Shown: positions 6,356 through 47,992 of the stretch, piece by piece
Numbering within the stretch: the first letter of the stretch is position 1
Layout of the letters: the number at the start of each line of letters is the position of its first letter
From: Ignavibacteriota bacterium
GTDB lineage: Bacteria; Bacteroidota; Ignavibacteria; UBA10030; UBA6906
Reading direction: 5' to 3'
Assembly (NCBI GenBank): GCA_963801355.1
Contig: CAWDEM010000004.1
Span: forward strand, 1,152,001 to 1,216,000
Length of the DNA: 64,000 bases
Notes under the pieces: model-generated
What the model was told of the DNA's origin: nothing
The model's database searches: none
The model's input: only the letters and a program-made list of their open reading frames with translations
Program-made: the position numbers and the translations under genes

Positions 6356-6402
6356 GGGGGAAATGGAGTCAGGCCCCCGTCTCCTCACGCCCTTGAATCT
6401 GC

Positions 6403-6460
6403 TTGACTTTTCAACAATTTCCATATATTGTCCATACATCATACGTAATACGATATACTT
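6403..6460 (+). promoter_or_regulatory. Putative promoter of the hexuronate operon followed by a heptamer-repeat operator
   Basis: TTGACT (6403-6408), 17 nt, TATTGT (6426-6431); then CATACAT-CATACGT-AATACGA-TATACTT (6433-6460). Confidence 0.55.
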
Positions 6461-6476
6461 ACCCCTGCAGGTCCTG

Positions 6477-7220
6477 ATGGACACACCGTTTACCAAAATC
6501 CAACGCCCTTCAACGCTGAGCCAGGTGATTGTCGAAAACGTCGAACAGTATATCAGGGATCGGAAACTTGTCCCGGGGCAAAAACTTCCCACTGAACAAG
6601 AGCTCTGTGAGATGTTTTCCGTAAGCCGGACGGCGGTGCGCGAAGCCCTGCGCATGCTGAGCGCCCGCGGGCTGATCACCATCAGAAAGCGAAGGGGCAT
6701 GTTTGTCAGCGACATGTCATCATCGCACGCCGTCTCCACGATGGGGTTATTCCTCGAGCTCAAATTCGATAAGGACTACATTCTCCACGTGTTCAATGTA
6801 CGGCGCGCGATAGAGCCGGAGGTATGTCGCTGGGCGGCGCAACACCGGACGGCCGAAGACATCGCCGTCCTCCGGAAAAACCTGGAGAAGATGGAGGGGT
6901 GTGATCCGGAAGACCGCGACATTGAAAGCGTCCTTGATCAGGAGTTCCACTCGACCGTCACCGCGGCCAGCAAGAATCCCATCGCGCCCGTTGTTCTCGA
7001 GCCGATCTTCGCGTTGATGCCCAAAATCCGTACGATGGTCTACGGCAACATCGCCGACTGCAAGAGCTCAGCGCTGGACTATCACCGTGAAATCTTCGAC
7101 GCAATCAATCGGCAGGACGACGAGCGCGCATGTACCCTGATGCGCAATCACATAACCCGGGCAGCGCTTCAGGCAAACGAAGCGATCGACAGGATCAACC
7201 AGCTACAGGAACATCTATGA
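6477..7220 (+). CDS. GntR/FadR-family transcriptional regulator
   Basis: KLPTEQELCEMFSVSRTAVREAL winged HTH; FCD domain with DQEFH..ASKNP and YHREIFDAI..MRNHI. Confidence 0.93.
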   Translation: MDTPFTKIQRPSTLSQVIVENVEQYIRDRKLVPGQKLPTEQELCEMFSVSRTAVREALRMLSARGLITIRKRRGMFVSDMSSSHAVSTMGLFLELKFDKDYILHVFNVRRAIEPEVCRWAAQHRTAEDIAVLRKNLEKMEGCDPEDRDIESVLDQEFHSTVTAASKNPIAPVVLEPIFALMPKIRTMVYGNIADCKSSALDYHREIFDAINRQDDERACTLMRNHITRAALQANEAIDRINQLQEHL

Positions 7221-8527
7221 ACACAACCGCAACCAGCAGTGTCGGACGGCTGTTCGCCGGCAACTACCGATGGGTCGTTTGTGCATTGCTCTTCTTTGCC
7301 ACGACTGTCAACTACATTGATCGTCAGATTCTCTCCCTGCTCAAGCCCATTCTCGATGAGGAGCTGCAGTGGACCAACGAGCAGTTCGGGATCGTGAATT
7401 CCGCATTTCAAGGTGCATACGGCATTGGTCTCCTGGCCTTCGGCTGGTTTATTGACCGCTTCGGCACAAAGATCGGGTACGGTGTCTCCATCGCCGCCTG
7501 GAGCGTTGCTGCGATCGGGCACGCCCTTGTGAGCAGTGTGGGTGGTTTCATGGGTGCCCGGATTGCGCTTGGTCTGGGTGAGGGGGGCAACTTCCCTTCG
7601 GCCATCAAGGCGGTGGCGCTCTGGTTTCCCAAAAAAGAGCGGGCGTTTGCCACGAGCATCTTCAACGCCGGAACCAACGTCGGCGCAATCATCGCTCCGG
7701 CGGTCGTCCCGTGGATTGCCTTCACCTGGGGTTGGCAGGCCGCTTTCATCGCCGCGGGCATCGCCGGATTCCTCTGGCTGTTCTTGTGGATACCGTTCTA
7801 TAATGTCCCGGAAAAAATCAAGCATCTCCAGCAGAAAGAGTTCGCACACATTCACAGTGATCTGGACGATTCGGTCGTGGGGGCGAAGACCTCCTGGGGC
7901 AGTCTCCTCCGGTACCGGCAGACGTGGGCATTCCTTGTTGCAAAAGGCCTCACCGATCCCATCTGGTGGTTCTTCCTTATCTGGCTTCCGGATTACTTCA
8001 AGCAGACACGCGGGTTGAATATCAAAGAAAGCTGGGTCCATCTCGTCACGATCTATGCCATCGTGACGGTTCTGAGTATTGCGGGAGGATGGATCACCGG
8101 GTATATGGCAAAACGGGGCTGGACCGTGACACGTGCACGCAAATCAGGAATGTTTCTCTTTGCGTTGCTGGTGGTGCCAATTTATGCTGTCACCACAGTT
8201 GGTGACTGGACAGCGGTGCTGCTCATCGGACTCGCGGGTGCCGCACACCAGGCCTGGTCAGCGAACTTGTTCACCACCGTGTCTGACATGTTTCCCAAGC
8301 ACGCAGTGGCTTCGGTCACCGGTATCGGCGGCATGGCCGGGGCGTTTCTCGGGATGTTCTTTCCGTTCTTGACGGGAAGGCTCCTCGATGTGTTTAAAGC
8401 CTCCGGAGACATCACCGGCGGCTATACGGTGCTGTTCACCATCTGCGCATTCGCATACCTGGTGACATTTGCCATCCACCACCTGCTCGCTCCGCGGTTT
8501 GAACTGTTCGACATGAATAAGGGATAG
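7217..8527 (+). CDS. exuT: MFS hexuronate transporter
   Basis: YRWVVCALLFFATTVNYIDRQ, GEGGNFP, FNAGTNVGA, TDPIWWFFLIWLP, AAHQAWSANLFT; ATGA overlap with the GntR stop. Confidence 0.9.
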   Translation: MNTTATSSVGRLFAGNYRWVVCALLFFATTVNYIDRQILSLLKPILDEELQWTNEQFGIVNSAFQGAYGIGLLAFGWFIDRFGTKIGYGVSIAAWSVAAIGHALVSSVGGFMGARIALGLGEGGNFPSAIKAVALWFPKKERAFATSIFNAGTNVGAIIAPAVVPWIAFTWGWQAAFIAAGIAGFLWLFLWIPFYNVPEKIKHLQQKEFAHIHSDLDDSVVGAKTSWGSLLRYRQTWAFLVAKGLTDPIWWFFLIWLPDYFKQTRGLNIKESWVHLVTIYAIVTVLSIAGGWITGYMAKRGWTVTRARKSGMFLFALLVVPIYAVTTVGDWTAVLLIGLAGAAHQAWSANLFTTVSDMFPKHAVASVTGIGGMAGAFLGMFFPFLTGRLLDVFKASGDITGGYTVLFTICAFAYLVTFAIHHLLAPRFELFDMNKG

Positions 8528-8534
8528 CACACCA

Positions 8535-9977
8535 ATGAAGACACGCCCGTTCATCCATGAGCGTTTTCTGCTGGAAAACGACATCGCGGTCGAGCTGTAC
8601 GAACGCTATGCCCGCGACCTCCCGATCATCGACTATCACTCGCACCTGCCTCCCGCCGATGTTGCGCGCAACCGTACCTTCGACACGCTGACGCGCGTCT
8701 GGCTTGAAGGCGACCACTACAAGTGGCGCGCGATGAGGTCCAATGGAGTCGACGAACGTTTCTGCACCGGTGATGCAACCGACTGGGAGAAATTCGAAGC
8801 ATGGGCGGCAACGGTGCCGAAGACCCTCCGCAATCCGTTGTACCACTGGACGCACATGGAACTGCGGCGTCCGTTTGGCATCGACGACATCCTGTTAAGC
8901 ACAGAGACGGCGCGCAGGGTCTGGGATCGATGCAATGAGCTCCTGCACCAACCGGACTTCTCGGCGCGCGGGCTTCTGCGTCAATTCAACGTAGAGGTCA
9001 TCTGCACGACGGATGATCCCACGGATACCCTCGAGCACCACCGCGCGGTGGCTGCGGATCCCACATTCGGAGCGAAGATGGTCCCGGCGTACCGTCCCGA
9101 CAAAGCCCATCGGGTTGATGATCCGGTCTTCTTCAGAGGGTGGGTGGAACGGCTGGCCGCTGCAGCAGACATGACGATTGTCTCCTACATGGATTTCCTG
9201 GATGCGCTGCGCAAACGTCACGGGGTGTTTCATGACCTCGGATGCCGCGTGTCCGACCACGGACTCGAGAGCATCGTGGCCGACGACGCCTCTGCGGCCG
9301 ACATTGCCGGCATCTTCCGGCGTGCGATGGACGGCCATCAGGTGAGTGCCGCGGATGCCCAGAAATTCGGGGCTGCGCTGCTGTTCGAGTTCGGCCTCAT
9401 GGATAACGAGCGTGGTTGGACCCAGCAATACCATCTGGGGGCATTGCGCAACACGAATCCCCGCATGTTCCGCACACTCGGTCCGGATACGGGGTTCGAC
9501 ACCATCGGTGACTTTGACATCGCACGCCCGCTTGCCCGCATGCTCGGCAAACTCGATGATGCCCGGGCGCTGCCGAAAACCATCCTCTACAACCTCAATC
9601 CGCGCGACAATGAGCTGATGGCGACAATGATCGGGAATTTCCAGGACGGCAGTGTCCCCGGAAAAATGCAGTACGGGAGCGCATGGTGGTTCCTGGATCA
9701 AAAGGACGGCATGGAACGGCAGCTCAATGCGCTCTCCAATCTGGGGCTGCTCAGCCGGTTTGTCGGGATGCTCACTGATTCCCGCAGCTTCCTCTCGTTT
9801 CCGCGGCACGATTATTTCCGCCGGGTCCTCTGCAATATTCTCGGCAATGAGATGCAGCGCGGCCTCCTGCCCAATGAGATCGATCTGGTCGGGCCGATGG
9901 TTTCGGATATCAGTTACTACAACGCGAAGTCGTATTTCGGATTTGACGTTCCTTCCTCCAAGGAGGCTCTCACATGA
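8535..9977 (+). CDS. uxaC: Glucuronate (uronate) isomerase
   Basis: PIIDYHSHL, GDHYKWRAMR, NPLYHWTH, CTTDDP, GSAWWFLDQKDG, GMLTDSRSFLSFPRHDYFRR. Confidence 0.98.
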   Translation: MKTRPFIHERFLLENDIAVELYERYARDLPIIDYHSHLPPADVARNRTFDTLTRVWLEGDHYKWRAMRSNGVDERFCTGDATDWEKFEAWAATVPKTLRNPLYHWTHMELRRPFGIDDILLSTETARRVWDRCNELLHQPDFSARGLLRQFNVEVICTTDDPTDTLEHHRAVAADPTFGAKMVPAYRPDKAHRVDDPVFFRGWVERLAAAADMTIVSYMDFLDALRKRHGVFHDLGCRVSDHGLESIVADDASAADIAGIFRRAMDGHQVSAADAQKFGAALLFEFGLMDNERGWTQQYHLGALRNTNPRMFRTLGPDTGFDTIGDFDIARPLARMLGKLDDARALPKTILYNLNPRDNELMATMIGNFQDGSVPGKMQYGSAWWFLDQKDGMERQLNALSNLGLLSRFVGMLTDSRSFLSFPRHDYFRRVLCNILGNEMQRGLLPNEIDLVGPMVSDISYYNAKSYFGFDVPSSKEALT

Positions 9978-10807
9978 TTTCGGAAATGGTGAGCAAGTTC
10001 TATGATTTCTCCGACCGCACGATGGTCATTACAGGAGGCGGCGGGGTGCTCTGCAGCGAGATGGCGGTTGCGCTCGCAGGATGCGGCGCCCGGATGGCGG
10101 TCCTCGACCGTGATCTGGCGCTGGCACAAAAGGTCGTTGACCGCATCGTGAAGTCCGGCGGTACTGCGATTGCCGTGCAGGCTGATGTATTGATTCCCGA
10201 CCGTCTGGAAGAAGCCAGGAAGCAGGTCACCGAAGCCTTCGGCCATGTGGACACTCTCATCAACGGGGCCGGCGGTAACAACCCGAAGGCAACCACCGGT
10301 GCCGCCCAGTCATTCTTCGCGCTGCCGCCCGAGGCCTTGCGGTTCGTTTTCGATTTGAATATTGTCGGGGCGATTCTGCCGTCGCAGGTTTTCGGACGAG
10401 CCATGGCCGAGCACCGGCGCGGCGTGATTCTGAATGTCTCTTCCATGAATGCCTTCCGTCCCCTTACCCGGATCCCGGCCTATTCTGCGGCCAAGGCCGG
10501 TGTCAGCAACTTCACCCAATGGCTTGCCGTGCATATGGCACAGGAATATTCACCCGACATCCGGGTCAATGCGCTCGCCCCCGGTTTTTTCCTGACCGAC
10601 CAGAACCGGTTCCTGCTGACGGAGCAGGCAACGGGTGCCCTGACCGAGCGTGGCAAAAAAATCATCGACCACACGCCCATGGCACGGTTCGGAACACCGC
10701 ACGATTTGCTCGGCACCGTTCTCTGGCTGCTCTCGCCGGCAGCAGCGTTCGTGACCGGAACGGTGATCCCCGTCGACGGCGGATTCTCGGCATATTCAGG
10801 TGTCTAA
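9974..10807 (+). CDS. uxuB: SDR-type D-mannonate oxidoreductase (fructuronate reductase)
   Basis: TGGGGVL, NGAGGN.P.ATT, SSMNAFRPLTRIPAYSAAKA, APGFFLTDQNR; translationally coupled to uxaC. Confidence 0.82.
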   Translation: MISEMVSKFYDFSDRTMVITGGGGVLCSEMAVALAGCGARMAVLDRDLALAQKVVDRIVKSGGTAIAVQADVLIPDRLEEARKQVTEAFGHVDTLINGAGGNNPKATTGAAQSFFALPPEALRFVFDLNIVGAILPSQVFGRAMAEHRRGVILNVSSMNAFRPLTRIPAYSAAKAGVSNFTQWLAVHMAQEYSPDIRVNALAPGFFLTDQNRFLLTEQATGALTERGKKIIDHTPMARFGTPHDLLGTVLWLLSPAAAFVTGTVIPVDGGFSAYSGV

Positions 10808-10828
10808 CATCGTATTCCGGAGATCGTT

Positions 10829-12238
10829 ATGAAGACGCAGCAATTTGGAGTTGTGGGACTGGGCGTTATGGGTCAGAATCTGGCTCTGAACATCGCCCGC
10901 AACGGGTACAGCGTGGCAGGTCTTGATCTGGACCCCGCGAAAGTGAAAAGCACCGTCGGCAAGTTCAGCGGATCCGACATCGTCGCGACGGATTCCAAAG
11001 AGGAATTCGCTGCGCTGCTCGCTGCGCCGAGAATGGTACTCATCATGGTGCCGGCCGGGAAGGCCGTGGATGCAGTGATCAATGACCTGCGCCCGCACCT
11101 CACGCAGGGTGATATCCTCATCGACGGAGGCAACTCCTATTTCGAAGACACCCGCCGGCGGCTGAAACAGCTCATGGGCAGCGGCATCCTCTACATCGGG
11201 ACGGGGGTGAGCGGCGGGGAGGAGGGTGCGTTGCACGGTCCGGCCATCATGCCGGGCGGTGATGCCGCCGCCTGGCCGCTCGTGAAACCGATCTTCCAGA
11301 AAATCAGTGCGAAGGCTCCTGACGGAGTTCCCTGCTGTGACTGGATCGGCTCCGATGGTGCCGGCCATTTTGTGAAGATGGTGCACAACGGCATCGAATA
11401 TGCCGATATGCAAATGATCTGCGAGGCCTACTTCCTGATGGAAAAGGTGCTGGGGCTGAGCCCGGACGAGATGCACCGCGTCTTCACCGCCTGGAACGGC
11501 GGTGAGCTCAACAGCTACCTGATCGAGATCACGGCCAAAATCATGTCCCGGAAGGACCCGGATACCGGCAAAGCACTGGTGCAGGTCATTCTGGACACGG
11601 CCGAACAAAAAGGAACCGGCAAGTGGACGAGCACGGTATCACTGGATCTGGGTGTGCCGGCGCAGACCATCGCCGAAGCTGTGTTTGCCCGCATGTTGAG
11701 CGCCCTCAAGAAAGAGCGGGTGGCGGCGTCGACCGTGCTGGCGGGCCCCAACGGCGTATTCAAGGGCAACAAAGAAGAATTCATCGAGATGATCAGAAGA
11801 GCTCTGTATGCATCAAAGATCTGCTCGTATGCGCAGGGGTTCCAACTGTTGAAGGCTGCCGACGAGGAGTATAAGTGGAATCTTCGTTTTGGCTCGATTG
11901 CATCATTGTGGCGTGCCGGATGCATCATCCGCGCGCAATTCCTGGGCAAGATCAAGGAAGCGTACGAACGCAATCCGGCGCTCGCGAATCTGCTGCTCGA
12001 TCCATATTTCACCGGAGCCATCCGCGAAGCGTCGACGTCATGGCGCAAGGTCGTTGCCACGGCGGTGGAACTCGGCGTACCGGTCCCTGCGTTCAGCAGT
12101 GCCCTGTCATACTATGATGGATATCGCTCGGCGGTCCTGCCCGCGAACCTGCTGCAAGCCCAGCGTGATTTCTTCGGCGCGCACACATATCGCCGCATCG
12201 ACAAAGAAGGCATTTTCCATACACAGTGGGAAGAGTGA
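10829..12238 (+). CDS. gnd: NADP-dependent 6-phosphogluconate dehydrogenase (decarboxylating)
   Basis: [50 protein letters not shown]. Confidence 0.98.
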
Positions 12239-12244
12239 CCCGGC

Positions 12245-13405
12245 ATGGTGATCGTGGTCGACAGCAAGAACCCGTTTCTCGCTGATGCGCTCGCCGGAAT
12301 CGCAGAAGTGCGGCAGCTGGATACTGCTGCGATTACGCATGAGGTGTTGCGCGATGCGGATGCCGTGGTCGTGCGCTCGGAGACGAGAGTCGGGGAACCT
12401 CTGCTCCGGAATACGCGTGTGCAGTTCGTGGGGACGGCGACGATCGGCACGGATCACGTGGATACCGCATACTTGCAGAGGTCCGGTATCGGCTTTGCGA
12501 GTGCGCCCGGCAGCAACGCAAATTCCGTCGCCGAGTATGTCGCCGCAGCGCTCCTGGAGACCGCCGCCCGTCTTCACATCTCACTGAAGAACCGAATCCT
12601 CGGAGTGGTCGGCGTCGGTAATGTCGGGAGCCGGGTGGTGCGCGTCGGCCGCGCTCTCGGCATGCAGATTCTCCAAAATGATCCCCCGGTCGCCCGGAAG
12701 ACAGGCGGCCGGGATTTTGTTTCCCTTGATGCGATCATGGAAGCGGATGTGGTTTCCCTCCATGTGCCCCTGACCCGGACGGGTGACGACCCGACCTTCC
12801 ATCTGTTCAACCGGGAACGCCTCTTCCGCATGAAACGCAGGAGCGTGCTGTTGAACACCTCCCGGGGTGCTGTTGTGGAGGGGAGGGGACTGCACTCCGC
12901 TCTGACTGCCGGTCATCTGGCAGCCGCCGTCCTCGATGTCTGGGAAGGAGAACCGGATATCGATCCTCTGCTTCTCGGCACGGTGCTCATCGGGACTCCG
13001 CACATCGCAGGATATTCGTTTGACGGCAAGGTCAATGCCGCGCGCGCAATGTTTGAGTCCATTGTGCGCCACTTCGGAGTGGCGCGGCAGTGGCCTGACC
13101 CGGCGGCCATGCCCTCACCGCGGGCCGGCCGGATCGAACTCTCACCGCTGACTGATTGGCAGGAAGAACTCCGCCGCGTCATCAACTGTTGCTACAGCAT
13201 AGGGGAAGATGACAGGCGGCTCCGGGAACTGCTGGCATTGCCTGACGGTGCCCGGGGCGCGGAGTTCCGCAGTCAACGGGCCCACTATCCCGTGCGGCGC
13301 GAGTTTCACGCTACCCTGATAATTGCCCGGCGAGGATGCGACTCCGTGCGGGAGTCCCTGTCCGCGCTGGGTTTCACCCTGCAGGAATCACAGGAGGATG
13401 CATGA
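12245..13405 (+). CDS. pdxB: 4-phosphoerythronate dehydrogenase-like 2-hydroxyacid dehydrogenase
   Basis: VVRSETRV, GTATIGTDH, APGSNANSVAEY, GVGNVG, LHVPLT, LDVWEGEP, TPHIAGYS, C-terminal YPVRREF. Confidence 0.85.
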   Translation: MVIVVDSKNPFLADALAGIAEVRQLDTAAITHEVLRDADAVVVRSETRVGEPLLRNTRVQFVGTATIGTDHVDTAYLQRSGIGFASAPGSNANSVAEYVAAALLETAARLHISLKNRILGVVGVGNVGSRVVRVGRALGMQILQNDPPVARKTGGRDFVSLDAIMEADVVSLHVPLTRTGDDPTFHLFNRERLFRMKRRSVLLNTSRGAVVEGRGLHSALTAGHLAAAVLDVWEGEPDIDPLLLGTVLIGTPHIAGYSFDGKVNAARAMFESIVRHFGVARQWPDPAAMPSPRAGRIELSPLTDWQEELRRVINCCYSIGEDDRRLRELLALPDGARGAEFRSQRAHYPVRREFHATLIIARRGCDSVRESLSALGFTLQESQEDA

Positions 13406-14667
13406 TCGGCTCGGGTTTCACTGATCGCGATCTGGCCGTTGAGGAGGTCCGCACCATTCTTTCCGCCGCGTTCGAGAAGGAAGCCTTCGACGGGAAGCGG
13501 GTGCTGATGGTCATCCCTGACAGCACGCGGACTGCCCCCATCGGGTTGATGTTCCGGGAAATCGCCGCCCTGTTGCAGCCGCGCGTGAAGCACCTGGATG
13601 TGCTCGTGGCGCTGGGGACGCATCCCCCGATGAGTGAGGCGGCCATTGACCAGCGGCTCGAAATGGCTCCGGGGGAACGCGCCCGGCTCTTCCCGCGGAT
13701 CCGTGTGTTCAACCATCACTGGAATGATCCCTCGCAGCTGGTCTCCCTCGGCACGATCAGCGAACGCGACGTGGAGCACATCTCACGCGGGCTCATGAGT
13801 GAACGCGTGAATGTGACGATCAACAAACTGGTGCTCGAGTATGATCTGGTGATGATTGTCGGACCGGTATTTCCGCATGAAGTAGTGGGTTTCTCGGGCG
13901 GCAACAAGTATCTCTTCCCTGGCATTTCGGGACCGGAGATCATCGACATGTTTCACTGGCTGGGCGCACTTATCACAAGTCCCGTGATCATCGGCAGGAA
14001 GAATACCCCGGTGCGTGCGGTCGTCAACAAGGCCGCCTCATTGCTTCCTGTCAGGCGGTACTGCTGCAGTCTGGTCGTCCGGGGACACGGACTGGCGGGA
14101 TTGTACTGCGGGACTCCGGAAGAAGCGTGGGAAGGGGCGGCAGACCTCTCAAACCTGATCCACATCCTGTACAAAGACCGGCCGTATCACAGCGTGCTCT
14201 CCTGCGCGCCCTCGATGTACGACGACCTCTGGGTGGGAGCGAAGTGCACGTACAAACTCGAACCGGTCGTAGCGGACGGCGGCGAGGTCATCATCTATGC
14301 GCCGCACATCAAGGAGATTTCCGTTACGCACGGGAAACTCATCGGTGAGATCGGCTATCATGTGCGGGACTATTTTCTCTCCCGGTTTGACCGTTTTGCC
14401 CATATCCCGCGGGGGGTCCTGGCACACTCCACGCACGTGCGCGGTGTGGGAACGATGGTGGACGGTGTCGAGTACCCGCGAATATCCGTGATCCTTGCGA
14501 CAGGAATTCCGGAGGCGGAATGCCGCAAGGTGAATCTCGGGTATCGTGACCCCCGTTCCATCACCCTGCAAGATTGGAGAGACCGTGAGATCGAAGGAGT
14601 GCTTCTCGTGCCCAAAGCGGGGGAGATCCTCTACCGGTTGACCAACGATCCATTCCCCTTCACGTAA
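13402..14667 (+). CDS. LarA (lactate racemase) superfamily nickel-pincer epimerase, possibly mannonate/gluconate 2-epimerase
   Basis: PDSTRT, ALGTHPP, FNHHW, FPHEVVGFSGGNKYLFPGI, FHWLGA match LarA active-site motifs; SD AGGAGG; ATGA overlap with pdxB. Confidence 0.85.
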   Translation: MIGSGFTDRDLAVEEVRTILSAAFEKEAFDGKRVLMVIPDSTRTAPIGLMFREIAALLQPRVKHLDVLVALGTHPPMSEAAIDQRLEMAPGERARLFPRIRVFNHHWNDPSQLVSLGTISERDVEHISRGLMSERVNVTINKLVLEYDLVMIVGPVFPHEVVGFSGGNKYLFPGISGPEIIDMFHWLGALITSPVIIGRKNTPVRAVVNKAASLLPVRRYCCSLVVRGHGLAGLYCGTPEEAWEGAADLSNLIHILYKDRPYHSVLSCAPSMYDDLWVGAKCTYKLEPVVADGGEVIIYAPHIKEISVTHGKLIGEIGYHVRDYFLSRFDRFAHIPRGVLAHSTHVRGVGTMVDGVEYPRISVILATGIPEAECRKVNLGYRDPRSITLQDWRDREIEGVLLVPKAGEILYRLTNDPFPFT

Positions 14668-14736: not shown

Positions 14737-15882
14737 CTACTTCACTTCCAGCACATCCTTGTCCGGTAACTTGGGGAACGGTGCATGTGGTTCCGTCTGG
14801 TACCAGAATGCCACCGAGGCGATGTCGTCCTGGAGCGGCAGGTAGCGTCCGCCTGACCGCCATCCCAGGGCCTGCATGGTGACACGAAGATCCTTCTCGA
14901 ACCTGACGGGATCCATAATGTGCCAGCGGTAGAGTCCGAACCGTTGCTGGGAGTTGGCACCGAGGCCGTCAGGGCGAATGACCTGGGGCATCCCTGTGTA
15001 CGGGGTGGTGAATTCCACATATTGTTTTGTCTTGGGATCCTCGAAACCGTAGGAACCGCAAAAGTAATCCTCCGTGCCGGTCCCACAGATGGTTGGGTAC
15101 GAGCCGTCGCCATCCATGTAGAACTTTATCTCTCCTTCTCCCCACCAGCCGTTGTTGTTCACCCCCCAGGCCATGTAGAGTCCGACGAAATGCCCCCAGC
15201 CTTTCACACCATCGAGAATGGTGTAGTCCTGTTTGTACGGGAGCGGGTTGACGCGGCGGAATTGTGCGTGAAAGTATGCCGCGTCGTCGGAAACATCGGT
15301 GAGTGTGTAGTTGACCTGGTAGTAGAGGAACAGGTCTTCCTCGGCGATATTCTCGACGGTGATCTTGCATGATCTCCGGAAGGGCATTTCCCAATAGCAG
15401 TTGAAGCCGTTGCCCGGGTTGACGCACACCGGGAGAGAAACGATTGGCGCGAACTGGCACCAGCCGTTGCCGAAGAAATCGGCCACCGGCGTTTCGACGG
15501 ACGGTGTGGCTTCGCCGTCCCAATAGATGCGCAGCAGCGCGTAGCGCCAGTGTCCGCTCGGCGTCATCCATACCTGTTGAATGGCGCCCGGGCCCTTGAT
15601 CTCCGCGAGTGTGAAGATCTCCTGTGGCTTGATCTTCACGGAAGGCGAGATTTTCCACCCCTGCCCGAGGTCGCGGGCGGCTTTGGCACCCGTCCCCTCG
15701 GTGGCCGTTCCCCCTTTGCCCTTTTCTCCGGTGAAGTTCTCCGGGCTGATCGAGCGGGTCTTCGCGTGTGAAAGCCGTGAAAGCGTCCCGAGCCCCAAAC
15801 CAAGACCGTTGTACGATTGTTGAGCCATCATGGTGCCTCCGGCAAAGACGAGTAGGATGGGAATTATACGCATCGGTGTCAT
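14737..15882 (-). CDS. DUF2961 / GH172-family glycoside hydrolase, secreted
   Basis: Signal peptide; TRSISPENFTGEKGKGG, NCYWEMPF, YFHAQFRR, WWGEGEIKFYMDGD, GTGTEDYF, YRWHIMDP, SVAFWYQ. Confidence 0.9.
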   Translation of the reverse strand: MTPMRIIPILLVFAGGTMMAQQSYNGLGLGLGTLSRLSHAKTRSISPENFTGEKGKGGTATEGTGAKAARDLGQGWKISPSVKIKPQEIFTLAEIKGPGAIQQVWMTPSGHWRYALLRIYWDGEATPSVETPVADFFGNGWCQFAPIVSLPVCVNPGNGFNCYWEMPFRRSCKITVENIAEEDLFLYYQVNYTLTDVSDDAAYFHAQFRRVNPLPYKQDYTILDGVKGWGHFVGLYMAWGVNNNGWWGEGEIKFYMDGDGSYPTICGTGTEDYFCGSYGFEDPKTKQYVEFTTPYTGMPQVIRPDGLGANSQQRFGLYRWHIMDPVRFEKDLRVTMQALGWRSGGRYLPLQDDIASVAFWYQTEPHAPFPKLPDKDVLEVK

Positions 15883-15905
15883 GTGTTCTCCGTTTCGATG
15901 TGAGT

Positions 15906-17534
15906 TCAGAACGGCCTCATGAGTTCCTGGTACGATCGAAGATGATCATACATCTTCCTGAAGACCCGGTACTTTGCCGCGTGAAAGCGCGCATGCTTTT
16001 TCTGCGGTTGAAACCTCTGCCCGGCCGAGCTCATGCGGACCGCTGCATCCAGGATGGAAGGAAACTTTCCGGCGCCGACCGCAGCGAGCATTGCGGTGCC
16101 GAGCAGGACCGCCTCCGGTTCCCGCGGGAGGATGATCTCGCAGCCGGTGATATCGGCATGTTCCTGGAGCCAGAGGGGGTTGCGGGTGCCGCCGCCGCAC
16201 GCATGGATGCGTTTGATGGCAAACCCGTTGCCGTTCATCGTTTCAATAATGTGGCGCGTGCCGTAGGCGATTGCCTGGATCGTGGCATAGTACAGCCGCG
16301 CGATGGAGTCGATGCTATCGTCCAGTGAGAGTCCGCTGATGATGCCCCGGGCGGCGGGATCGGCGTGCGGCGAACGGTTTCCCAGAAAGTAGGGGAGGAT
16401 GTGGAGATCTTTCACGATCGCCGGCCCTTCCAATTCTCGCTGCTTGATATCCGACACGACGCCGTTCAGATATTCGTAGACGGTGACCCCGCGGCCGCGC
16501 GCTTCAGCGGTGACAATTTCCGAGCGGCATGTAGAGTGGATGATGAAATCCAGCAGCGAGCCTGTCGCGCTCTGTCCGCCCTCGGTAAGCCAGAGTCCAG
16601 GGATCATGGCATCTCTGTACGGCCCCCAGATCCCCTTGATGAAGTGGGGCGACCGCGACACGGCCATATGACAGGAGGACGTGCCGCCGATCAGCGCGAG
16701 GACCCGTTCAAGGGCTGCAGGCTTCGGCGTGCTGGTGAAGCCCATGCCCATTACGCCGATGCCCCCCGCATGCGCGTCAATGATGCCGACAGCCACTTTC
16801 GTGGCCGTCGTGAGGCCGAGGTGCTGCGCCGCGACCGGCGTGAGCTCGCCGGCATAGGAACCCATCGGCATGATCCTGTCGCCGATCATCCCCTTTGTGA
16901 GGAGGTCATCCATGCCGAGCTTGCCATAGAAGGTGGGATCCCACCGTGCTTTCTTTCCGTCAAATCCCCATTTGCACACCGTGGTGCAAAGGCTGCGCAC
17001 ATCCTGTCCGGTGGCCTGCAGGACCAGGAAGTCCGCAAGGTCAAGATAGCGGGCAGCCCTTTTCCACGTCGCCGGCATATGCTCTTTCAGCCAGAGGAGT
17101 TTCGGCGGTTCCATCTCCGGAGAAATCACCCCGCCCACATACTTCAACAGAGGATGATGGGTGGCGTTGATGCGCCGGGCTTGATCGATGGCGCGATGGT
17201 CCATCCAGACAATGACATTGTGTTCTGCTGTTCCGGTGGGTGAAACGGTGATTGGTGCCAGGGAAGCATCCAGTGCCACGAGTGAACAGGTCGCGTCAAA
17301 AGAGAGCCCGACCACGGTTGAAGGATGAATCTCCGCTACGGCGACGGCCTCACGCACAACTTCGCCCGCCCGTGCCCAGATGTCGGTTGAAGACTGCTCC
17401 ACGAAATCTTCCCTGGGCCGCCAGATCTGGATCTCGCGGACAGCATGGCCGACCATTCTTCCTTCGAGGTCAAACACGCCGGCACGGACGCTTCCCGTGC
17501 CCACATCGACTCCGATGACATAGTCGAAGTTCAT
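15906..17534 (-). CDS. FGGY-family carbohydrate kinase (D-ribulokinase/pentulose kinase-like)
   Basis: GVDVGTGSVRAG, FDATCSLV, WMDHRA, SPEMEPPKL, IDAHAGG, GTSSCH, GNRSP; ATGA overlap with the binding-protein stop. Confidence 0.92.
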   Translation of the reverse strand: MNFDYVIGVDVGTGSVRAGVFDLEGRMVGHAVREIQIWRPREDFVEQSSTDIWARAGEVVREAVAVAEIHPSTVVGLSFDATCSLVALDASLAPITVSPTGTAEHNVIVWMDHRAIDQARRINATHHPLLKYVGGVISPEMEPPKLLWLKEHMPATWKRAARYLDLADFLVLQATGQDVRSLCTTVCKWGFDGKKARWDPTFYGKLGMDDLLTKGMIGDRIMPMGSYAGELTPVAAQHLGLTTATKVAVGIIDAHAGGIGVMGMGFTSTPKPAALERVLALIGGTSSCHMAVSRSPHFIKGIWGPYRDAMIPGLWLTEGGQSATGSLLDFIIHSTCRSEIVTAEARGRGVTVYEYLNGVVSDIKQRELEGPAIVKDLHILPYFLGNRSPHADPAARGIISGLSLDDSIDSIARLYYATIQAIAYGTRHIIETMNGNGFAIKRIHACGGGTRNPLWLQEHADITGCEIILPREPEAVLLGTAMLAAVGAGKFPSILDAAVRMSSAGQRFQPQKKHARFHAAKYRVFRKMYDHLRSYQELMRPF

Positions 17535-18463
17535 TCTTTCAACCACTCGCCTCCCTTGTCGATATTTCCGCGCGTGAAGACCCGCGAAGGCAATGTCACT
17601 TCCTTCTGCACCTTCTTCCCCTTGAGGATTTCCAGGGCTGTGGTGACGGCCTCCCGTCCTCCAGTCGGGTACTCAAAGGACGCGGAGAGAATTCCCTGCC
17701 TGACGTACATTTGGCCTTCTTGTGGCAAGCCGTCGATGCCTACAAAGGTAATTTGTTTCTCCCTCCCGGCGGCCTTGGCGGCAAGATACGCCCCATGCGC
17801 GCCCGGGTCATTGTGCGCATAGACCAGCGTGATATTCGGGAACCGGGCCAGTGCCGACTCCATTTCCTTCCGGGCATTCGGTTCCAGCCATTTCATGTCG
17901 GCCTCGAAGACCACAGACACGCCGCTCCCGGCGATTCCGTCGCGGAATCCCGTATGCCGGTCCTGCCCCGGCGTCGACGTCATGAGCCCCTTCAGTTCCA
18001 CGATTGTACCCTTTCCCCCGAGCAGGTTCACAATCCATTTGCCCGCCGCACGGCCGATTTTTTTGTTGTCCGCACCGATGAAACACGTGTACTCGTTGCC
18101 GACGACGCGCCTGTCCAGCACGATGACGGGAATGCCATTGCGGTATGCATCGGCCACCGGCTTGGTGAGGGGAGCTGCTTCCTTGGGGGAGATAATGATC
18201 AGGTCCACCTTCTGCCGCACGAACTCTCCGACATGCGCGCTCTGGCGCAGGTTGTCGTTCTGTGCGTCTTTGAAGACAACACGCAATTCCGGGTGTCCCT
18301 CCGCCGCCTTCCTGATGTCGGCATTCATCTGGACCCGCCACGGCTCGCCGAGATTGCACTGGCTCATGCCGATGGTCCACCGGGGTGACTGGGCGAACGT
18401 GAGTGTCATAGACAGCGCCAGACCGCACGTCATGAGGATGAGTGTCCGGAACAAGGGTTGCAT
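17531..18463 (-). CDS. Sugar ABC transporter substrate-binding protein (RbsB-like)
   Basis: Signal peptide; IGMSQCNLGEPWR, PVIVLDR, IGADNKKIG, YAHNDPGA, VGIDG. Confidence 0.92.
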   Translation of the reverse strand: MQPLFRTLILMTCGLALSMTLTFAQSPRWTIGMSQCNLGEPWRVQMNADIRKAAEGHPELRVVFKDAQNDNLRQSAHVGEFVRQKVDLIIISPKEAAPLTKPVADAYRNGIPVIVLDRRVVGNEYTCFIGADNKKIGRAAGKWIVNLLGGKGTIVELKGLMTSTPGQDRHTGFRDGIAGSGVSVVFEADMKWLEPNARKEMESALARFPNITLVYAHNDPGAHGAYLAAKAAGREKQITFVGIDGLPQEGQMYVRQGILSASFEYPTGGREAVTTALEILKGKKVQKEVTLPSRVFTRGNIDKGGEWLKE

Positions 18464-26573: not shown

Positions 26574-27617
26574 ATGACCGCACTCCCGGATCATCCCCAC
26601 CGAAGGTTCAATCCACTGACAGGCGAATGGATTCTTGTATCGCCGCAGCGCACGCAACGCCCGTGGCAGGGCAAAGTGGAGGCGATTGTCTCCGAGGTTC
26701 GCCAGGCATACGATCCACACTGCTATCTCTGTCCCGGCAACATGCGGTTTGGCGGTGCGCAGAACCCCCGCTACGAGCAGACATTCGTGTTCACCAATGA
26801 CTTCAGCGCGATGATACCACTGAAGGCACATTTGACGATGCAGGATGGCGATCTTCTCCGCGCCGAAAGTGAATCCGGCGTCTGCCGGGTCGTCTGCTTT
26901 ACACCCCGCCACGATCTGACGCTTTCCGGTTTGGCAACGCATGAGATTACCGGTGTCGTCAATGCCTGGACGGAAGAATATCGCACGCTCGCCGGCCTTG
27001 AAGATATTGCGTATGTCCAGATATTTGAAAACAAGGGTGAACTCATGGGATGCAGCAATCAGCATCCCCACGGGCAGATCTGGGCGCAGTGCACGATTCC
27101 CGTGATCCCGGCCATGGAACAGGCCCGGCAGCAGGAATACCGCAACGGGCACGCCTCTTGTCTCTTGTGCGACTACGCGGTCCTTGAGCGTTCCCGGGAG
27201 GAGCGTCTGGTGTGCAGTAACGATCACTTTGTAGCGCTGGTCCCGTTCTGGGCTGTCTGGCCGTTCGAGACCCTTCTCCTTCCGCTCCGTCACAGGTCGT
27301 CGTTGCTCGACTTTACGGGCGAGGAACGCGCAGCCCTGGCGGACCTTCTCCGGCGGCTCTCCCTGCGCTATGACAATCTCTTCGGCGTCTCCTTCCCTTA
27401 TTCAATGGGAATACATCAATCGCCGACGGATGCCCTCCCGCACCCTGAGTGGCACCTCCATTTCCACTTCTATCCGCCGCTCCTGCGCTCGGCGACAGTC
27501 AGGAAGTTCATGGTCGGTTATGAGATGCTTGCGAATCCGCAGCGTGACGTGTCCCCGGAACTCAGTGCGGCCCGCCTTCGGGAATCCTCAGAACTCCTTC
27601 CTCCGTTGCCCGGTTGA
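26574..27617 (+). CDS. galT: UDP-glucose--hexose-1-phosphate uridylyltransferase
   Basis: HRRFNPLTGEW, RPWQG, CYLCPGN, FENKG..MGCSNQHPHGQ, PLLRSATVRKFMVGYE. Confidence 0.97.
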   Translation: MTALPDHPHRRFNPLTGEWILVSPQRTQRPWQGKVEAIVSEVRQAYDPHCYLCPGNMRFGGAQNPRYEQTFVFTNDFSAMIPLKAHLTMQDGDLLRAESESGVCRVVCFTPRHDLTLSGLATHEITGVVNAWTEEYRTLAGLEDIAYVQIFENKGELMGCSNQHPHGQIWAQCTIPVIPAMEQARQQEYRNGHASCLLCDYAVLERSREERLVCSNDHFVALVPFWAVWPFETLLLPLRHRSSLLDFTGEERAALADLLRRLSLRYDNLFGVSFPYSMGIHQSPTDALPHPEWHLHFHFYPPLLRSATVRKFMVGYEMLANPQRDVSPELSAARLRESSELLPPLPG

Positions 27618-27733
27618 CCCCATGCCCTTGCGGAGACTTCCATGCTAGCAATCCTCTCCCGGTACTTCGGGCTCGACGCCCATGGGACGACATTACTGTT
27701 TTTTGTGTTCTATCCATACTCGTGAGGGTTCCA

Positions 27734-30700
27734 ATGAACTATTGCAGGGTTGTCTGTGCGGGCGGCATGGTACTCGCTGTGCTGTTTGCCGTTGCTGCAC
27801 TTGCGCAGTCAAAGCCGATGGTGTTGACGAATCCGGGTTTCGAACTCGCCGATCAGTCCGGAAGAGCCACAGCGTGGTCCGTCCACGGGAGCACAGATGG
27901 TGTGACAACGGCCGTCGATCGCTCGGTGAGTCATTCCGGGAGCGCCAGTCTGATGTGCCACGCACCGGCGCCCGGATCCTGCACTGTCGCGTCCGCGCCC
28001 CTCACGCTCGTTGTCGGCCGTCTGTACCGGCTCGCCGTATGGATCAAGACGGACGGAGCCGTCGCGGACCCGACATCCCGGTATCCTACGGCGGTGTCTG
28101 CCACGGCAACAATGGCATCGTTCCCGTTTGAGACACATGCCACTGTAGTCGGTGGTACACATGACTGGACCAGGAGCGAGATACTGTTTTTTGCGACGCG
28201 GGCAGCGGATTCCGTCCTCCTGCATCTCGGCTTGAACGGCCGCGCGACCGGCAAGGCCTGGTTCGACGATGTAGAGGTCGAAGAGGTGGACGACATCGCC
28301 GCCTATGTCCCTCTGGAAACCGTAAAGTGGTTCGGACCCGCGTTCCGGTACACCGACAAGGGGTGGACATTCGTCCATATCGAAGGAGAACCGTACCAGC
28401 GGGGGTATCAGTACGGCTCGTTGCTCTCGCGTGAGATCGGGATATTCATCGACAAGCTCGCGATCCGGCAGAACGGCGACAACCCGCGTGCCGGCTGGGT
28501 TGAACTGCGTACGTTGACAGACGCCCTGCTGCTCCGCAAATACGACAAAGAGTATCTGGAAGAGATGAAGGGCATCGCGGATGGCGCGGCAAACGCCGGC
28601 GGCACGTCCGGCGGGCGTCCGATCGATCTGCTGGATATCGTTACCCTGAATTCCTCCGTGGATCTCGGTCAGCTGGGCAGCGCATTGAACGAGACCGCCC
28701 ATTCCCTCAGCGGCCGCAGCTTCAACAAGGAGCAGGAGGAAGCTCAGGCGGCCGAGCGGCTGCACAAATGTTCATCGTTTCTGGCCAATGGACCCGCAAC
28801 CACGGACGGCGGGATCGTCTTTGCACAGCTGTTCATGTGGGGAGGGTATACGGGCGTGCACTGGGATGTCATCTGTGACGTGCAGCCTTCCCGCGGACAC
28901 CGGCTTGTCTATGAAACCTTCCCGGGCGGCGTACACTCGGGTGCGGATTTCTATATCAACGATGCGGGCATCATGATCGGCGAAACAACCACGATGCAGA
29001 CACCGTTCGACATCAACGGTGAACCGCAGTCCTCCCGCATCCGGCGTGCGGCCCAATACGCCTCCAGCATTGACCAGGTGGTGAACATCCTGACTCAGAA
29101 CAACAACGGCCTGTACACGAACGATTGGTTGATCGGAGATGCGCGCACGAACGAGATTGCCATACTTCTGCTTGGCACGAAGAAGTGGAAACTCTGGCGC
29201 AGTTCCAGCGGTGAATTTCCGGGGGATACAAAGGGGTTCTACTGGAGCGTGAACAATGCAAAAGACCCCGAAGTCAGGAAGGAATTTGTGCCCGACCCTT
29301 CCAACGCGCCCTTTGACGTCGTGTACTCCAACGTAAACCGCGATCTTGCATTTACACAGTTCTATCAGCGTGAGAAGGGGAAGATCGACGCCGGGAGTGC
29401 TGTGCGTGTCATTGCCTCCTCACCGGTGAACCGCCCGCATGCCTGCGACGGCAAGGTGACGACGTCTGCAATGGCCTCGCATATGATGTTCCTTGCTCAT
29501 TACGGCAAGGTCACCCTGCGCGAAAAGATGCCGGAAAAGGGATCCAGGCTTATGCCCGATCTTCCCAATGTGATTCCGCATCTCTCCCTGGGCTATTCCG
29601 TCATCAACCCGGTGTACATTGTGGAAAAGGTGAAGGCCTCGCGGCGCATCCCCCCGCCCGACCGGAAGCCCGTGGTCGATCTTGCTGACGTGAAGGATAT
29701 ATACTCGTTTGACAAGCAGCGACTCTGGATCAACACCGTCTATCCGGCAACGGAAGGGGACAACTGGTTCGCCAGTGCAACAGCGGCATACTGGCAGATG
29801 CTCAATGGCATGACTGCTGATCCTTCCTCGACGATGCCCGTGCTGCGTGACGGCCTCGCCGAGATGAATTGCCGCCTGCTGTACACGGTGGCGCGCGAGG
29901 GCACCATGGTGCCGGTCAAGGCCCAACGGGTATACGACCGGTTCAACAACTATGTCATCCCGCGCATCCGGGGCACCTATGCGCTGCATCAGCTCCGCCT
30001 GGCCCTGGGCAATACCCCGTTTGCCGATGTCATGAACGCCGTGCATACCCGCTTCCGCGAGAAGCCGATGACCACGAAGCAGTTCATCGCGGCCGCGGAA
30101 GAGATCAGCGGTAAGCCTGTCGCCGCTCTTGTCCTGCCCTGGCTTGACCGCGACGATCTGCCGCAAGTGAGCGTTGCCGCTTCACTCTCCGGTGAAGACC
30201 TCGTGCTTCATATTCAACAAACCGGAACACCGTATCTCTTTTCGACGGCCGTGGAAATCGTGACCGACAAGGGGTCTGTATGGAAGCCGGTCGCCGTCAG
30301 GAGTGGGGACGAACGTGTCACCCTCCGGGTTGCCGGGACACCGCGCACCGTGGTGTTCAATGCGGGGAATGACATCCCGGTGCAGCGGATGGAGTACGCA
30401 ACATTCTCCAATTTCTTTGATGATTTTTCCAGCACGACGATTGTGTACGGAACCACACGGCAGATAGAGGCAAACCACACGGCCGCGTTGAAATTCCAGA
30501 CCGTACTTGCAGATCAATTTACCGAGATCTTCTCTCCGCTGCGGCAGGATGCGGAGATGAACCGTCAGGAAATGGCAAAAGGAGACCTGATCGTCCTCGG
30601 AGGGGCGTCCGATAATAGTCTTGCCGCCTTGTGCGCCGGGAATGCCGGTTTGACGCTGGGACAGAACTGGTTCCGCTGGCGCGGTAGGCTCTACGCCGAG

Positions 30701-30904
30701 CCGGACAACGGGATTTTTGTGGCATGTGCGAATCCGTTCAATGCCGGCAGGAACATCTACCTCTTCGTCAGCAACAGCGCACTGCAACAGTACCAGATGA
30801 CAAAGCGATTTCAGGCACTTCCGTCATGGGCGGTGTTCAAGGGAGAACAGGTGGTCGAGAAGGGATACCATGAAGTGCCGGGATTGAGCGTGACTCTGGA
30901 GTAG
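27734..30904 (+). CDS. Secreted multidomain protein: CBM4/9-like domain, Ntn-hydrolase (phospholipase B/C45-like) and M1-like C-terminal region
   Basis: Signal peptide; NPGFE...AWFDDVEV beta-sandwich; HIEGEPYQRGYQYG and HK|CSSFLA putative autoproteolytic Cys; NNNGLYTNDWLIGD; C-terminal RGTYALHQLR..LG...F segment with no HEXXH seen. Confidence 0.7.
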   Translation: MNYCRVVCAGGMVLAVLFAVAALAQSKPMVLTNPGFELADQSGRATAWSVHGSTDGVTTAVDRSVSHSGSASLMCHAPAPGSCTVASAPLTLVVGRLYRLAVWIKTDGAVADPTSRYPTAVSATATMASFPFETHATVVGGTHDWTRSEILFFATRAADSVLLHLGLNGRATGKAWFDDVEVEEVDDIAAYVPLETVKWFGPAFRYTDKGWTFVHIEGEPYQRGYQYGSLLSREIGIFIDKLAIRQNGDNPRAGWVELRTLTDALLLRKYDKEYLEEMKGIADGAANAGGTSGGRPIDLLDIVTLNSSVDLGQLGSALNETAHSLSGRSFNKEQEEAQAAERLHKCSSFLANGPATTDGGIVFAQLFMWGGYTGVHWDVICDVQPSRGHRLVYETFPGGVHSGADFYINDAGIMIGETTTMQTPFDINGEPQSSRIRRAAQYASSIDQVVNILTQNNNGLYTNDWLIGDARTNEIAILLLGTKKWKLWRSSSGEFPGDTKGFYWSVNNAKDPEVRKEFVPDPSNAPFDVVYSNVNRDLAFTQFYQREKGKIDAGSAVRVIASSPVNRPHACDGKVTTSAMASHMMFLAHYGKVTLREKMPEKGSRLMPDLPNVIPHLSLGYSVINPVYIVEKVKASRRIPPPDRKPVVDLADVKDIYSFDKQRLWINTVYPATEGDNWFASATAAYWQMLNGMTADPSSTMPVLRDGLAEMNCRLLYTVAREGTMVPVKAQRVYDRFNNYVIPRIRGTYALHQLRLALGNTPFADVMNAVHTRFREKPMTTKQFIAAAEEISGKPVAALVLPWLDRDDLPQVSVAASLSGEDLVLHIQQTGTPYLFSTAVEIVTDKGSVWKPVAVRSGDERVTLRVAGTPRTVVFNAGNDIPVQRMEYATFSNFFDDFSSTTIVYGTTRQIEANHTAALKFQTVLADQFTEIFSPLRQDAEMNRQEMAKGDLIVLGGASDNSLAALCAGNAGLTLGQNWFRWRGRLYAEPDNGIFVACANPFNAGRNIYLFVSNSALQQYQMTKRFQALPSWAVFKGEQVVEKGYHEVPGLSVTLE

Positions 30905-43498: not shown

Positions 43499-43954
43499 TC
43501 AACCGTTCATGAGATACGTGACCACTGCGGCCACATACGCGGCAAGGCCGATGACCAACAACGCCAGCTCCACAAAATAGAGTTTGGTCTTCCCATTGCG
43601 GTAGCGGATGATCCGGGAAATTGTGAGTTCGGGTGTCTCCTCGTCGAACTGTGTCGTCCACCGGATACGCAAACCACCGAGGAGAAGGATGATCATGCCG
43701 GCGAGGACAAAGACGATGCCGAACGCCAGACTGTAGCGCGCGAAGTCGTTCGTCTGTGCGATTTTCGGCCCTGAAAATCCCGTGATGGTGAGGACCAGGG
43801 TGGAGAGTGTCAGCAAGAGTTGTGATCGACCCTGGATCACATCGAAATGGTGCCGGAGGAACTCCATAGATCTGCCGAGGCTCTCCGGTCCGCCCATCAT
43901 GGCCAGAATGTTGCGTGCCTCTTCATCGGGTGTGAGCGGACGGTATCGCTTCAT
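43499..43954 (-). CDS. Hypothetical three-TM membrane protein
   Basis: 151 aa with three hydrophobic segments; ATGA overlap with the GH47 stop. Confidence 0.7.
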   Translation of the reverse strand: MKRYRPLTPDEEARNILAMMGGPESLGRSMEFLRHHFDVIQGRSQLLLTLSTLVLTITGFSGPKIAQTNDFARYSLAFGIVFVLAGMIILLLGGLRIRWTTQFDEETPELTISRIIRYRNGKTKLYFVELALLVIGLAAYVAAVVTYLMNG

Positions 43955-47988: not shown

Positions 47989-47992
47989 CTGT

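Follow-up and report, generated by a model that had tools for sequence, protein, structure and literature searches.

The window analyzed here is a stretch of 64,000 nucleotides from an Ignavibacteriota bacterium (genome G000, contig C4, positions 1152001-1216000), which carries an operon of seven genes that we connect with the uptake and breakdown of hexuronates. The genome consists of 8 contigs with 4.8 Mb in total and has a completeness of 100%. All operon coordinates are given as positions in the window, + strand. The seven co-directional open reading frames (ORFs) are closely packed and occupy 6477-14667 (+). The first encodes a GntR-family regulator with an FCD domain, of the ExuR/UxuR-like class (6477-7220, +; PF00392 75.8 bits, PF07729 87.8 bits), which starts at the ATG at 6477 within the ORF 6363-7220 and scores under all NCBIfam equivalog cut-offs. 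It is followed by a major facilitator superfamily (MFS) transporter of the anionic sugar-acid (ACS) subfamily, ExuT/DgoT-like and of the D-galactonate/ExuT type (7217-8527, +; MFS_1 193.8 bits), which gives 224.3 bits on TIGR00893, below the cut-off of 395. The third gene codes for the uronate isomerase UxaC (8535-9977, +; PF02614 661.7 bits; NF002794 627.9 bits, cut-off 387), a single-copy gene with one tblastn match in the genome. Next comes a D-mannonate oxidoreductase (fructuronate reductase) of the short-chain dehydrogenase/reductase (SDR) type (9974-10807, +; NF006132 379.7 bits, cut-off 281). The initial annotation had called this gene uxuB; the mannonate oxidoreductase is indeed present, but it is a PRK08277-type SDR outside the E. 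coli long-chain UxuB family. The fifth gene encodes Gnd, the NADP-dependent decarboxylating 6-phosphogluconate dehydrogenase (10829-12238, +; NF006765 714 bits, cut-off 413; TIGR00873 695.5 bits), of which the genome has this sole copy. A PdxB-like 4-phosphoerythronate dehydrogenase with the domains 2-Hacid_dh_C, 2-Hacid_dh and DUF3410 (12245-13405, +; NF001309 394.5 bits, cut-off 434) precedes the last gene product, a LarA homolog of 421 aa that looks GntE-type and that we call P0001 (13402-14667, +; Pfam Lar_N PF09861 84.5 bits, cut-off 23.3). ORF calls, Pfam and NCBIfam agree on this gene list and on the coordinates, and the seven-gene operon described initially can thus be retained.

The genes are tightly joined. 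The gntR/MFS and pdxB/larA junctions are 4-nt ATGA overlaps, uxaC and the SDR gene overlap by 4 nt, and gaps of 7, 21 and 6 nt separate MFS from uxaC, SDR from gnd and gnd from pdxB, respectively. A congener carries the same genes in identical order (locus L057) with protein identities of 75-90%. Because the order is kept there, we regard the run as a real conserved operon and not as a chance series of ORFs. A weak promoter-like site (TTGACT-17-TATTGT, 6403..6431, +) lies in the 192-nt divergent intergenic region 5' of gntR; with three such sites observed upstream of gntR and 2.9 expected from shuffles, the promoter/terminator scan was uninformative. The operator search upstream of gntR yielded no inverted repeat and no clear conserved block in comparison with the congener, and an Rfam scan of the window gave no match.

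The proposal of a dehydratase-free route depends on the LarA homolog. In a phmmer search against the PDB, the top match of P0001 was T. maritima 4NAR, aligned along the whole length with 216.3 bits (E 5.3e-63); the second match reached 31 bits. A profile built from 22 homologs (alignment A1) gave 283.7 bits for 4NAR and 44.2 bits for the next family. The AlphaFold model of P0001 (pLDDT 79.2, pTM 0.82) fits 4NAR with a TM of 0.85 at an identity of 33%, compared with a TM of 0.56-0.75 and identities of 13-19% for LarA and Mar (malate racemase) chains. 4NAR is GntE2/LarAH20 of Thermotoga maritima, for which Desguin et al. 2020 report epimerization of D-mannonate to D-gluconate dependent on the nickel-pincer nucleotide (NPN) (PMC7583248). 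The same article lists R75, K184 and H200 of LarA, equivalent to R41, K164 and H180 of GntE2, as NPN-binding residues, and D72, H108, H174 and K298 of LarA as catalytic. In P0001 the aligned residues are R43, K169 and H185 for cofactor binding and D40, H74, H159 and K281 for catalysis, with K281 placed via the 4NAR alignment only; all seven are invariant in A1. The pocket of the GntE branch, to which LarAH15 and LarAH18-20 are counted, is described as having a glutamate and then valine or serine after the catalytic histidine, a tryptophan in helix 11, and an alanine plus a histidine in helix 14 (PMC7583248, PMC11770544). This signature appears in P0001 as H159-E160-V161, W277 and A341-H342, again invariant in A1, with A341 and H342 placed by eye from the 4NAR alignment. 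P0001 consequently combines the Lar_N domain, the LarA fold, and the NPN-binding and catalytic residues with larB, larC and larE elsewhere in the genome, and its nearest characterized relative in both sequence and fold is a proven GntE. The assignment to the GntE type made initially is borne out by phmmer, profile and model alike, and as judged from sequence and model the protein is most likely an epimerase that uses NPN to invert C2 of D-mannonate/D-gluconate or of their 6-phosphates.

The rest of the genome fits this assignment. LarB (C8:2405582, 296.5 bits, cut-off 175), LarC (C4:413649, 448.6 bits, above its cut-off) and LarE (C4:222000, 325.8 bits, cut-off 150) are all encoded, and the genome-wide matches to the three lie outside the window, in which, as noted initially, none of them occurs. 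The genome additionally has two further LarA paralogs outside the window (C4:1228801-1229409 and C4:1418370-1418954), both below cut-offs: one, encoded after a sodium:solute symporter, comes close to lactate racemase with 436 bits on NF033504 (cut-off 460), and the other resembles malate racemase (263 bits) and has an extended N-terminus. Likewise, the window holds no UxuA, no PfkB kinase and no 2-keto-3-deoxy-6-phosphogluconate (KDPG) aldolase, as seen by Pfam on 45 of its ORFs, with all genome-wide PfkB and Eda matches located outside C4:1152001-1216000. UxuA (PF03786) gave 0 matches in the complete genome, while the control search was positive in T. maritima. In the congener G004, uxuA sits between the genes for a GH43 beta-xylosidase and a XylB-like FGGY kinase (L151, G004:C10:428000-442000). 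In G000 these two flanking genes are adjacent (C8:2117663-2120789) and a tblastn search with the G004 UxuA returned nothing, so that uxuA is missing through a clean indel and not because of a gap in the assembly. The presence of uxuA is accordingly polymorphic within one genus; the XylB-like kinase is split into two frames in G004. The second uronate dehydratase, UxaA (PF04295), also gave 0 matches in G000, and no ManD-type mannonate dehydratase was found among its three enolase-superfamily genes, all of which are MenC/NSAR/dipeptide-epimerase-like. Genes for KdgK and Eda do exist: Eda and the KdgK ortholog PfkB-A serve unsaturated uronates and are encoded together with KduI, DUF4861, alginate lyases and a TonB-dependent receptor. 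The initial annotation had set against its own proposal a uxuA-kdgK-eda route without larBCE; what the genome holds is larBCE without uxuA, with kdgK and eda in the alginate/KduI locus.

From these genes we propose, as a probable reading, that the operon serves hexuronate uptake and catabolism by a dehydratase-free route in which a nickel-cofactor epimerase passes mannonate on as gluconate to the pentose phosphate pathway. The substrates are most likely plant-derived uronic acids. Glucuronate would be imported by the MFS transporter and isomerized to fructuronate by UxaC; galacturonate would enter as well, via a short UxaE-like epimerase that is encoded in a pectin locus elsewhere on C4. The SDR would reduce fructuronate to D-mannonate. 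The LarA homolog, loaded with the NPN made by LarB, LarC and LarE, would then invert C2 to give D-gluconate. A kinase encoded outside the operon, for which PfkB-B (G000:C4:576004-577086) is the best candidate, would form 6-phosphogluconate, and Gnd would finally convert it into ribulose-5-phosphate, CO2 and NADPH. The sequence of intermediates drawn in the initial annotation, from glucuronate via fructuronate, mannonate, gluconate and 6-phosphogluconate to ribulose-5-phosphate, is therefore supported by the GntE type of the epimerase, by larBCE, by the lack of uxuA and uxaA and by the conserved cluster. What we infer within it is the substrate of the epimerase, which kinase takes part and which of these two steps comes first. 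For the order with the epimerase first, as in Thermotoga, we see a chance only slightly short of even.

The route itself is already published, and our locus adds a new example. It was proposed for T. maritima by Rodionova et al. 2012, as told in PMC7583248 and PMC6978723, and the GntE activity was demonstrated in 2020 (PMC7583248). The UxaR-regulated operon of T. maritima is given as aldH-pelB-gnd-uxaR-uxaE-uxaD-gntE-gntK (PMC3750489). Both systems share the logic of a uronate isomerase product that an SDR reduces to mannonate, a LarA-type C2 epimerase, a kinase, Gnd as the exit to ribulose-5-phosphate and a GntR-family regulator; the epimerases are homologous over the full length with the same catalytic and NPN-binding residues. 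They differ in that the epimerases share only 33% identity and that our SDR, with just 95 bits against 1VL8 (TM0441), is not an ortholog of the Thermotoga enzyme. In place of an FGGY GntK, the candidate kinase here is a PfkB/KdgK paralog from another locus; the operon includes uxaC and the MFS gene, uxaE is elsewhere and pdxB is inserted. Furthermore, UxuA is found in T. maritima and missing from G000. With the Ashwell pathway of E. coli (UxaC, UxuB, UxuA, KdgK, Eda) the operon has in common UxaC, the reduction to mannonate, the ExuT-like transporter and the GntR/FCD regulator. Different are the absence of UxuA and UxaA, the SDR-type reductase and the location of KdgK and Eda in the alginate/KduI locus. 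The proposed carbon exit is also a different one, since the carbon would leave through Gnd, with CO2 released and NADPH gained.

To follow the cluster through related bacteria we compared 41 genomes of the same order, counting an identity of at least 47% as a P0001 ortholog and E<=1e-20 as a LarA-family match. Orthologs of P0001 occur in 13 of the 41, only weaker LarA matches in 5 more and none in the remaining 23; the ortholog is broken or split in G007 and G018, and the match in G008 contains one in-frame TGA. At 11 loci with a GntE ortholog, searched by tblastn, UxaC, the SDR and Gnd were each found next to it in 8 cases and PdxB in 4. These clusters also hold UxaE (long or short), KduI, pectinesterase, GH28, DUF4861 and a PfkB kinase directly after gntE, and in their make-up, as loci for pectin and hexuronates, they resemble the T. 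maritima operon. In four relatives (G013, G020, G032, G033) Gnd adjoins a GntE-type gene and no Zwf was found. 6-Phosphogluconate can hardly come from glucose-6-phosphate there, which ties Gnd to the GntE pathway.

Of five LarA-type genes that were tested in relatives, four (G001, G010, G020 and G032; loci L050, L051, L052 and L054) belong to another GntE-like subfamily, with 616-655 bits on NF052594, the model for the putative hexonate epimerase LarAH18 (cut-off 500). P0001 itself is ruled out as a member with 178.6 bits, and three of its close homologs score 166-185 bits. The two groups share their place in the GntE-like branch of the LarA superfamily, and the LarAH18-type genes of these four genomes, of which G001 is in the same genus as G000, occupy equivalent Gnd/PfkB clusters. 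By sequence, P0001 and its close homologs thus form a separate GntE-like subfamily without a curated NCBIfam model, and the two subfamilies alternate in equivalent clusters even within the genus of the window.

Beyond the order, at least 8000 protein clusters match P0001 at E<=1e-30, mostly unnamed or labelled 'lactate racemase'/DUF2088, and among 599 pattern-matched stretches in species-representative genomes a relative is encoded in at least 594. We took the best 80 of these as a distant set; by record titles they come from Bacteroidota, Calditrichota, Myxococcota, Acidobacteriota, Planctomycetota, Chloroflexota, Nostoc, Hydrogenedentes and others. Neighbors were sought by tblastn within 10 kb of the GntE homolog (query coverage of at least 60%, E<=1e-20), on contigs of which some are short. 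The SDR was found in 38/80 loci, Gnd in 27/80, UxaC in 18/80 and UxaE in 19 (long form 15/80, short form 4/80), followed by PfkB-B (9/80), PdxB (7/80), FGGY (2/80) and PfkB-A (1/80). The co-occurrence with uxaC and gnd that was expected initially is therefore kept in most loci from relatives and recurs in distant ones.

The operon lacks a kinase, and the choice among the kinases of the genome is a tentative one. G000 has two KdgK-like PfkB paralogs with ~43-46% mutual identity; against T. maritima KdgK (2afb), PfkB-A scores 248 bits and PfkB-B 150 bits. PfkB-B (C4:576004-577086) follows the short UxaE-like gene (418 aa, C4:574712-575968; PF16257 positions 79-473 only, 164 bits) in the pectin locus, where GH88, GH28 and a TonB-dependent receptor are encoded as well. 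In relatives, UxaE is either of this short kind or a full-length protein of 517-567 aa. Orthologs of PfkB-B (identity at least 74%) are present in 14 of the 41 genomes, each of them with a LarA-family match (P0001 subfamily or confirmed LarAH18-type in 13, unclassified in G003), and in 0 of the 23 genomes without one, but the relatives are not independent, which makes this co-occurrence a lead and not a test. PfkB-B directly adjoins Gnd or GntE in eight relatives (G001, G003, G005, G012, G018, G020, G027, G032), and in eight of the nine distant loci that have it near GntE its identity is 68-83%. We consequently name PfkB-B as the likeliest hexonate kinase, albeit with a chance that we put noticeably below one half. 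PfkB-A is a less likely pathway kinase in G000: its neighbors are KduI, alginate lyases and Eda, it is closer to KdgK, and it occurs also in G014, G024 and G031, all without a LarA match. In G008, G010, G013 and G033, PfkB-A is the only PfkB beside the epimerase, and in G020 and G032 both paralogs lie side by side.

The four FGGY kinases of G000 classify as pentulose kinase, ribulokinase, rhamnulokinase and XylB-like. Two of them were considered as gluconate kinase and dismissed. The FGGY at 15906-17546 (-) gives 613 bits with the pentulose-kinase model (TIGR01315) and 114 bits with gntK_FGGY, and its nearest structure is 3gg4. It is part of a convergent DUF2961/ABC cluster downstream of the operon (14737-18463, -) that also encodes a DUF2961 protein (323.7 bits) and a periplasmic sugar-binding protein; this cluster adjoins the operon within the genus only and is probably a separate pentulose-forming sugar pathway. 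The XylB-like FGGY at C8:2118392 sits in a cluster with LacI, a xylose-isomerase-like gene and GH43.

Several observations weigh against the reading of the operon as an epimerase route. A P-loop gluconate kinase (TIGR01313) has 0 matches in G000 and exceeds the cut-off in 0 of the 41 relatives, and none of the four FGGY genes of G000 reaches the gntK_FGGY cut-off. PfkB-B lies outside the operon, and in a locus with GH88 it could be a second 2-keto-3-deoxygluconate (KDG) kinase. Gnd, single-copy in a genome that also has Zwf, is needed even without a uronate route. The identity of P0001 to GntE2 is low, and its score on NF052594 is far below that cut-off. The anti-correlation between UxuA and GntE, which the initial annotation had predicted, is not seen among the 41 genomes. 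Full-length UxuA occurs in 5 of them and fragments in 2 more, and all 7 have a GntE-type or LarA match; full-length UxuA is thus confined to genomes with P0001 orthologs (3/13) or weaker LarA matches only (2/5) and is absent from those without a LarA match (0/23). In these relatives the epimerase route is nevertheless commoner than UxuA and often the only one. Finally, the reported Km values for free mannonate are all millimolar, with 120 mM for GntE1, 17 mM for GntE2 and 9.4 mM for LarAH15 (PMC7583248, PMC11770544), and extracts of Lactobacillus suebicus are described to epimerize only after phosphorylation (PMC6978723).

The last two points lead to a serious rival, in which the kinase (PfkB-B or another) acts first and makes 6-phosphomannonate, and the LarA homolog is a 6-phosphomannonate 2-epimerase that feeds Gnd, with the overall route unchanged. 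Valk et al. 2020 describe the galacturonate route of L. suebicus with a mannonate kinase as well as a 6-phosphomannonate 2-epimerase whose genes were not assigned: mannonate gave no gluconate without ATP and 6-phosphomannonate with ATP, and 6-phosphomannonate and 6-phosphogluconate were interconverted (PMC6978723). According to the same article, GntE homologs exist in Lactobacillus, and that route likewise enters through UxaC, UxaE and UxuB, leaves through 6-phosphogluconate and Gnd, bypasses UxuA/KdgK/KdgA and is redox-neutral; there the order was measured with genes unassigned, whereas here the genes are visible and the order is a proposal. It also suits this order that the GntE-linked kinases are KdgK paralogs and no gluconokinases, and that the neighboring PdxB acts on a phosphorylated 2-hydroxy acid. 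On the other hand, GntE2, the closest characterized relative, is reported to convert free mannonate with a kcat of 197 per s (PMC7583248), T. maritima is described with GntE and gntK in one operon (PMC3750489), and no phosphate-binding feature could be pinpointed in the P0001 sequence. All in all we consider phosphorylation before epimerization somewhat unlikely in our organism.

More radical is the idea that the LarA homolog acts on another 2-hydroxy acid, be it another hexonate, an aldarate or a uronate, that Gnd and PdxB are housekeeping enzymes on a shared transcript and that mannonate leaves by an unrecognized enzyme. Gnd and PdxB are indeed single-copy with Zwf and PdxJ present, Desguin et al. 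suspected that GntE1 natively acts on something else (PMC7583248), and 42 of the 80 distant loci, some on short contigs, have none of UxaC, SDR, Gnd, PdxB, PfkB, UxaE, MFS, GntR, FGGY or KduI within 10 kb. Yet the SDR, Gnd and UxaC or UxaE adjoin the homolog repeatedly across phyla, Gnd adjoins GntE-type genes also in genomes in which a search for Zwf gave nothing, the residues of the GntE signature do not vary and no other mannonate exit was found in G000, which together make this alternative very improbable. It is also unlikely, though slightly less so, that the PdxB-like enzyme is itself a pathway catalyst that oxidizes C2 of a phosphorylated hexonate (6-phosphogluconate or 6-phosphomannonate), besides or in place of 4-phosphoerythronate. 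Its gene is translationally coupled between gnd and gntE, it recurs in GntE/Gnd clusters at 4 of the 11 loci from relatives and at 7 of the 80 distant ones, and its score is slightly under the PdxB equivalog cut-off. But this cut-off is reached in 0 of the 41 relatives, including all 28 with a match, and because every relative scores below it, the low score reflects the lineage and not a divergent function. The enzyme is, moreover, the only strong match of its kind in G000, where the presence of PdxJ means that PdxB is needed; a single copy is likewise seen in 28 of the 41 relatives, some of them without GntE, and in 4 of 5 distant genomes tested that have PdxB in the GntE cluster; and 7 of the 11 loci from relatives do without it in the cluster. 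By these comparisons the PdxB of the operon appears to be an ordinary vitamin-B6 enzyme.

Its position beside gnd is probably functional all the same and not accidental. Of the 20 relatives with both genes, 9 have PdxB next to Gnd (G000, G002, G004, G016, G017, G018, G022, G027, G033), and in four of these nine pairs GntE is absent or away. The seven distant clusters, in which PdxB is co-directional and the gene order varies, belong to several phyla and, by record titles, to Bacteroidetes, Acidobacteriota and Ignavibacteria-type and Hydrogenedentes-type metagenome-assembled genomes. 4-Phosphoerythronate, the substrate of PdxB, is a side-product of erythrose-4-phosphate oxidation. It is reported to inhibit 6-phosphogluconate dehydrogenase, and carbon sources that feed the pentose phosphate pathway are reported to intoxicate a mutant unable to remove it (PMC6449344, PMC12445079). 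For these two reasons we propose that the gnd-pdxB coupling would drain 4-phosphoerythronate and so spare Gnd when uronate carbon floods the pentose phosphate pathway. One may combine this with the order known from L. suebicus, such that pdxB guards Gnd while PfkB-B may be the mannonate kinase of the L. suebicus type and the LarA homolog the 6-phosphomannonate 2-epimerase; for both to hold jointly we see only a small chance. Another observation concerns an uncharacterized HAD-like protein of 305 aa (L058:11809-12726, in the relative G013), which adjoins the GntE homolog in 16 of the 80 distant loci (L071-L150), often immediately upstream. Its sole family match is a weak one to Pfam HAD_2, with no PDB or NCBIfam match, and a homolog was not found in G000. 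The HAD-like and PdxB sets overlap in one locus only (L127), and the protein may be an alternative to PdxB, perhaps acting by dephosphorylation.

Apart from the operon and the convergent cluster, the window shows a few further features. A DDE transposase (DDE_Tnp_1 and DUF772) lies near its start (151-1548, +), and an ORF of 1096 aa (27614-30904, +) has only a weak phospholipase-B-like match of 40.5 bits. A GH47 protein (43951-45318, -; 394.6 bits) adjoins two large ORFs of 864 and 816 aa without a Pfam match (45394-50667, -) and lies beside an ABC sugar transporter and a Sugar_tr MFS protein. The mannosidases of family GH47 are more familiar from eukaryotes.

In summary, the locus is a clean example of the nickel-epimerase shunt, which looks like the only mannonate exit in this organism, given a complete genome with the cofactor genes and with no mannonate or altronate dehydratase. 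Particular to it are the lack of a kinase in the operon, an epimerase subfamily without a curated model, and the embedding of the sole gnd together with the sole pdxB. As the route is published, no new field is opened. The gains would lie in a better annotation of the many proteins labelled 'lactate racemase' or DUF2088, in finding the missing kinase, and in learning whether PdxB (or the HAD-like protein) acts as metabolite-damage control for Gnd.

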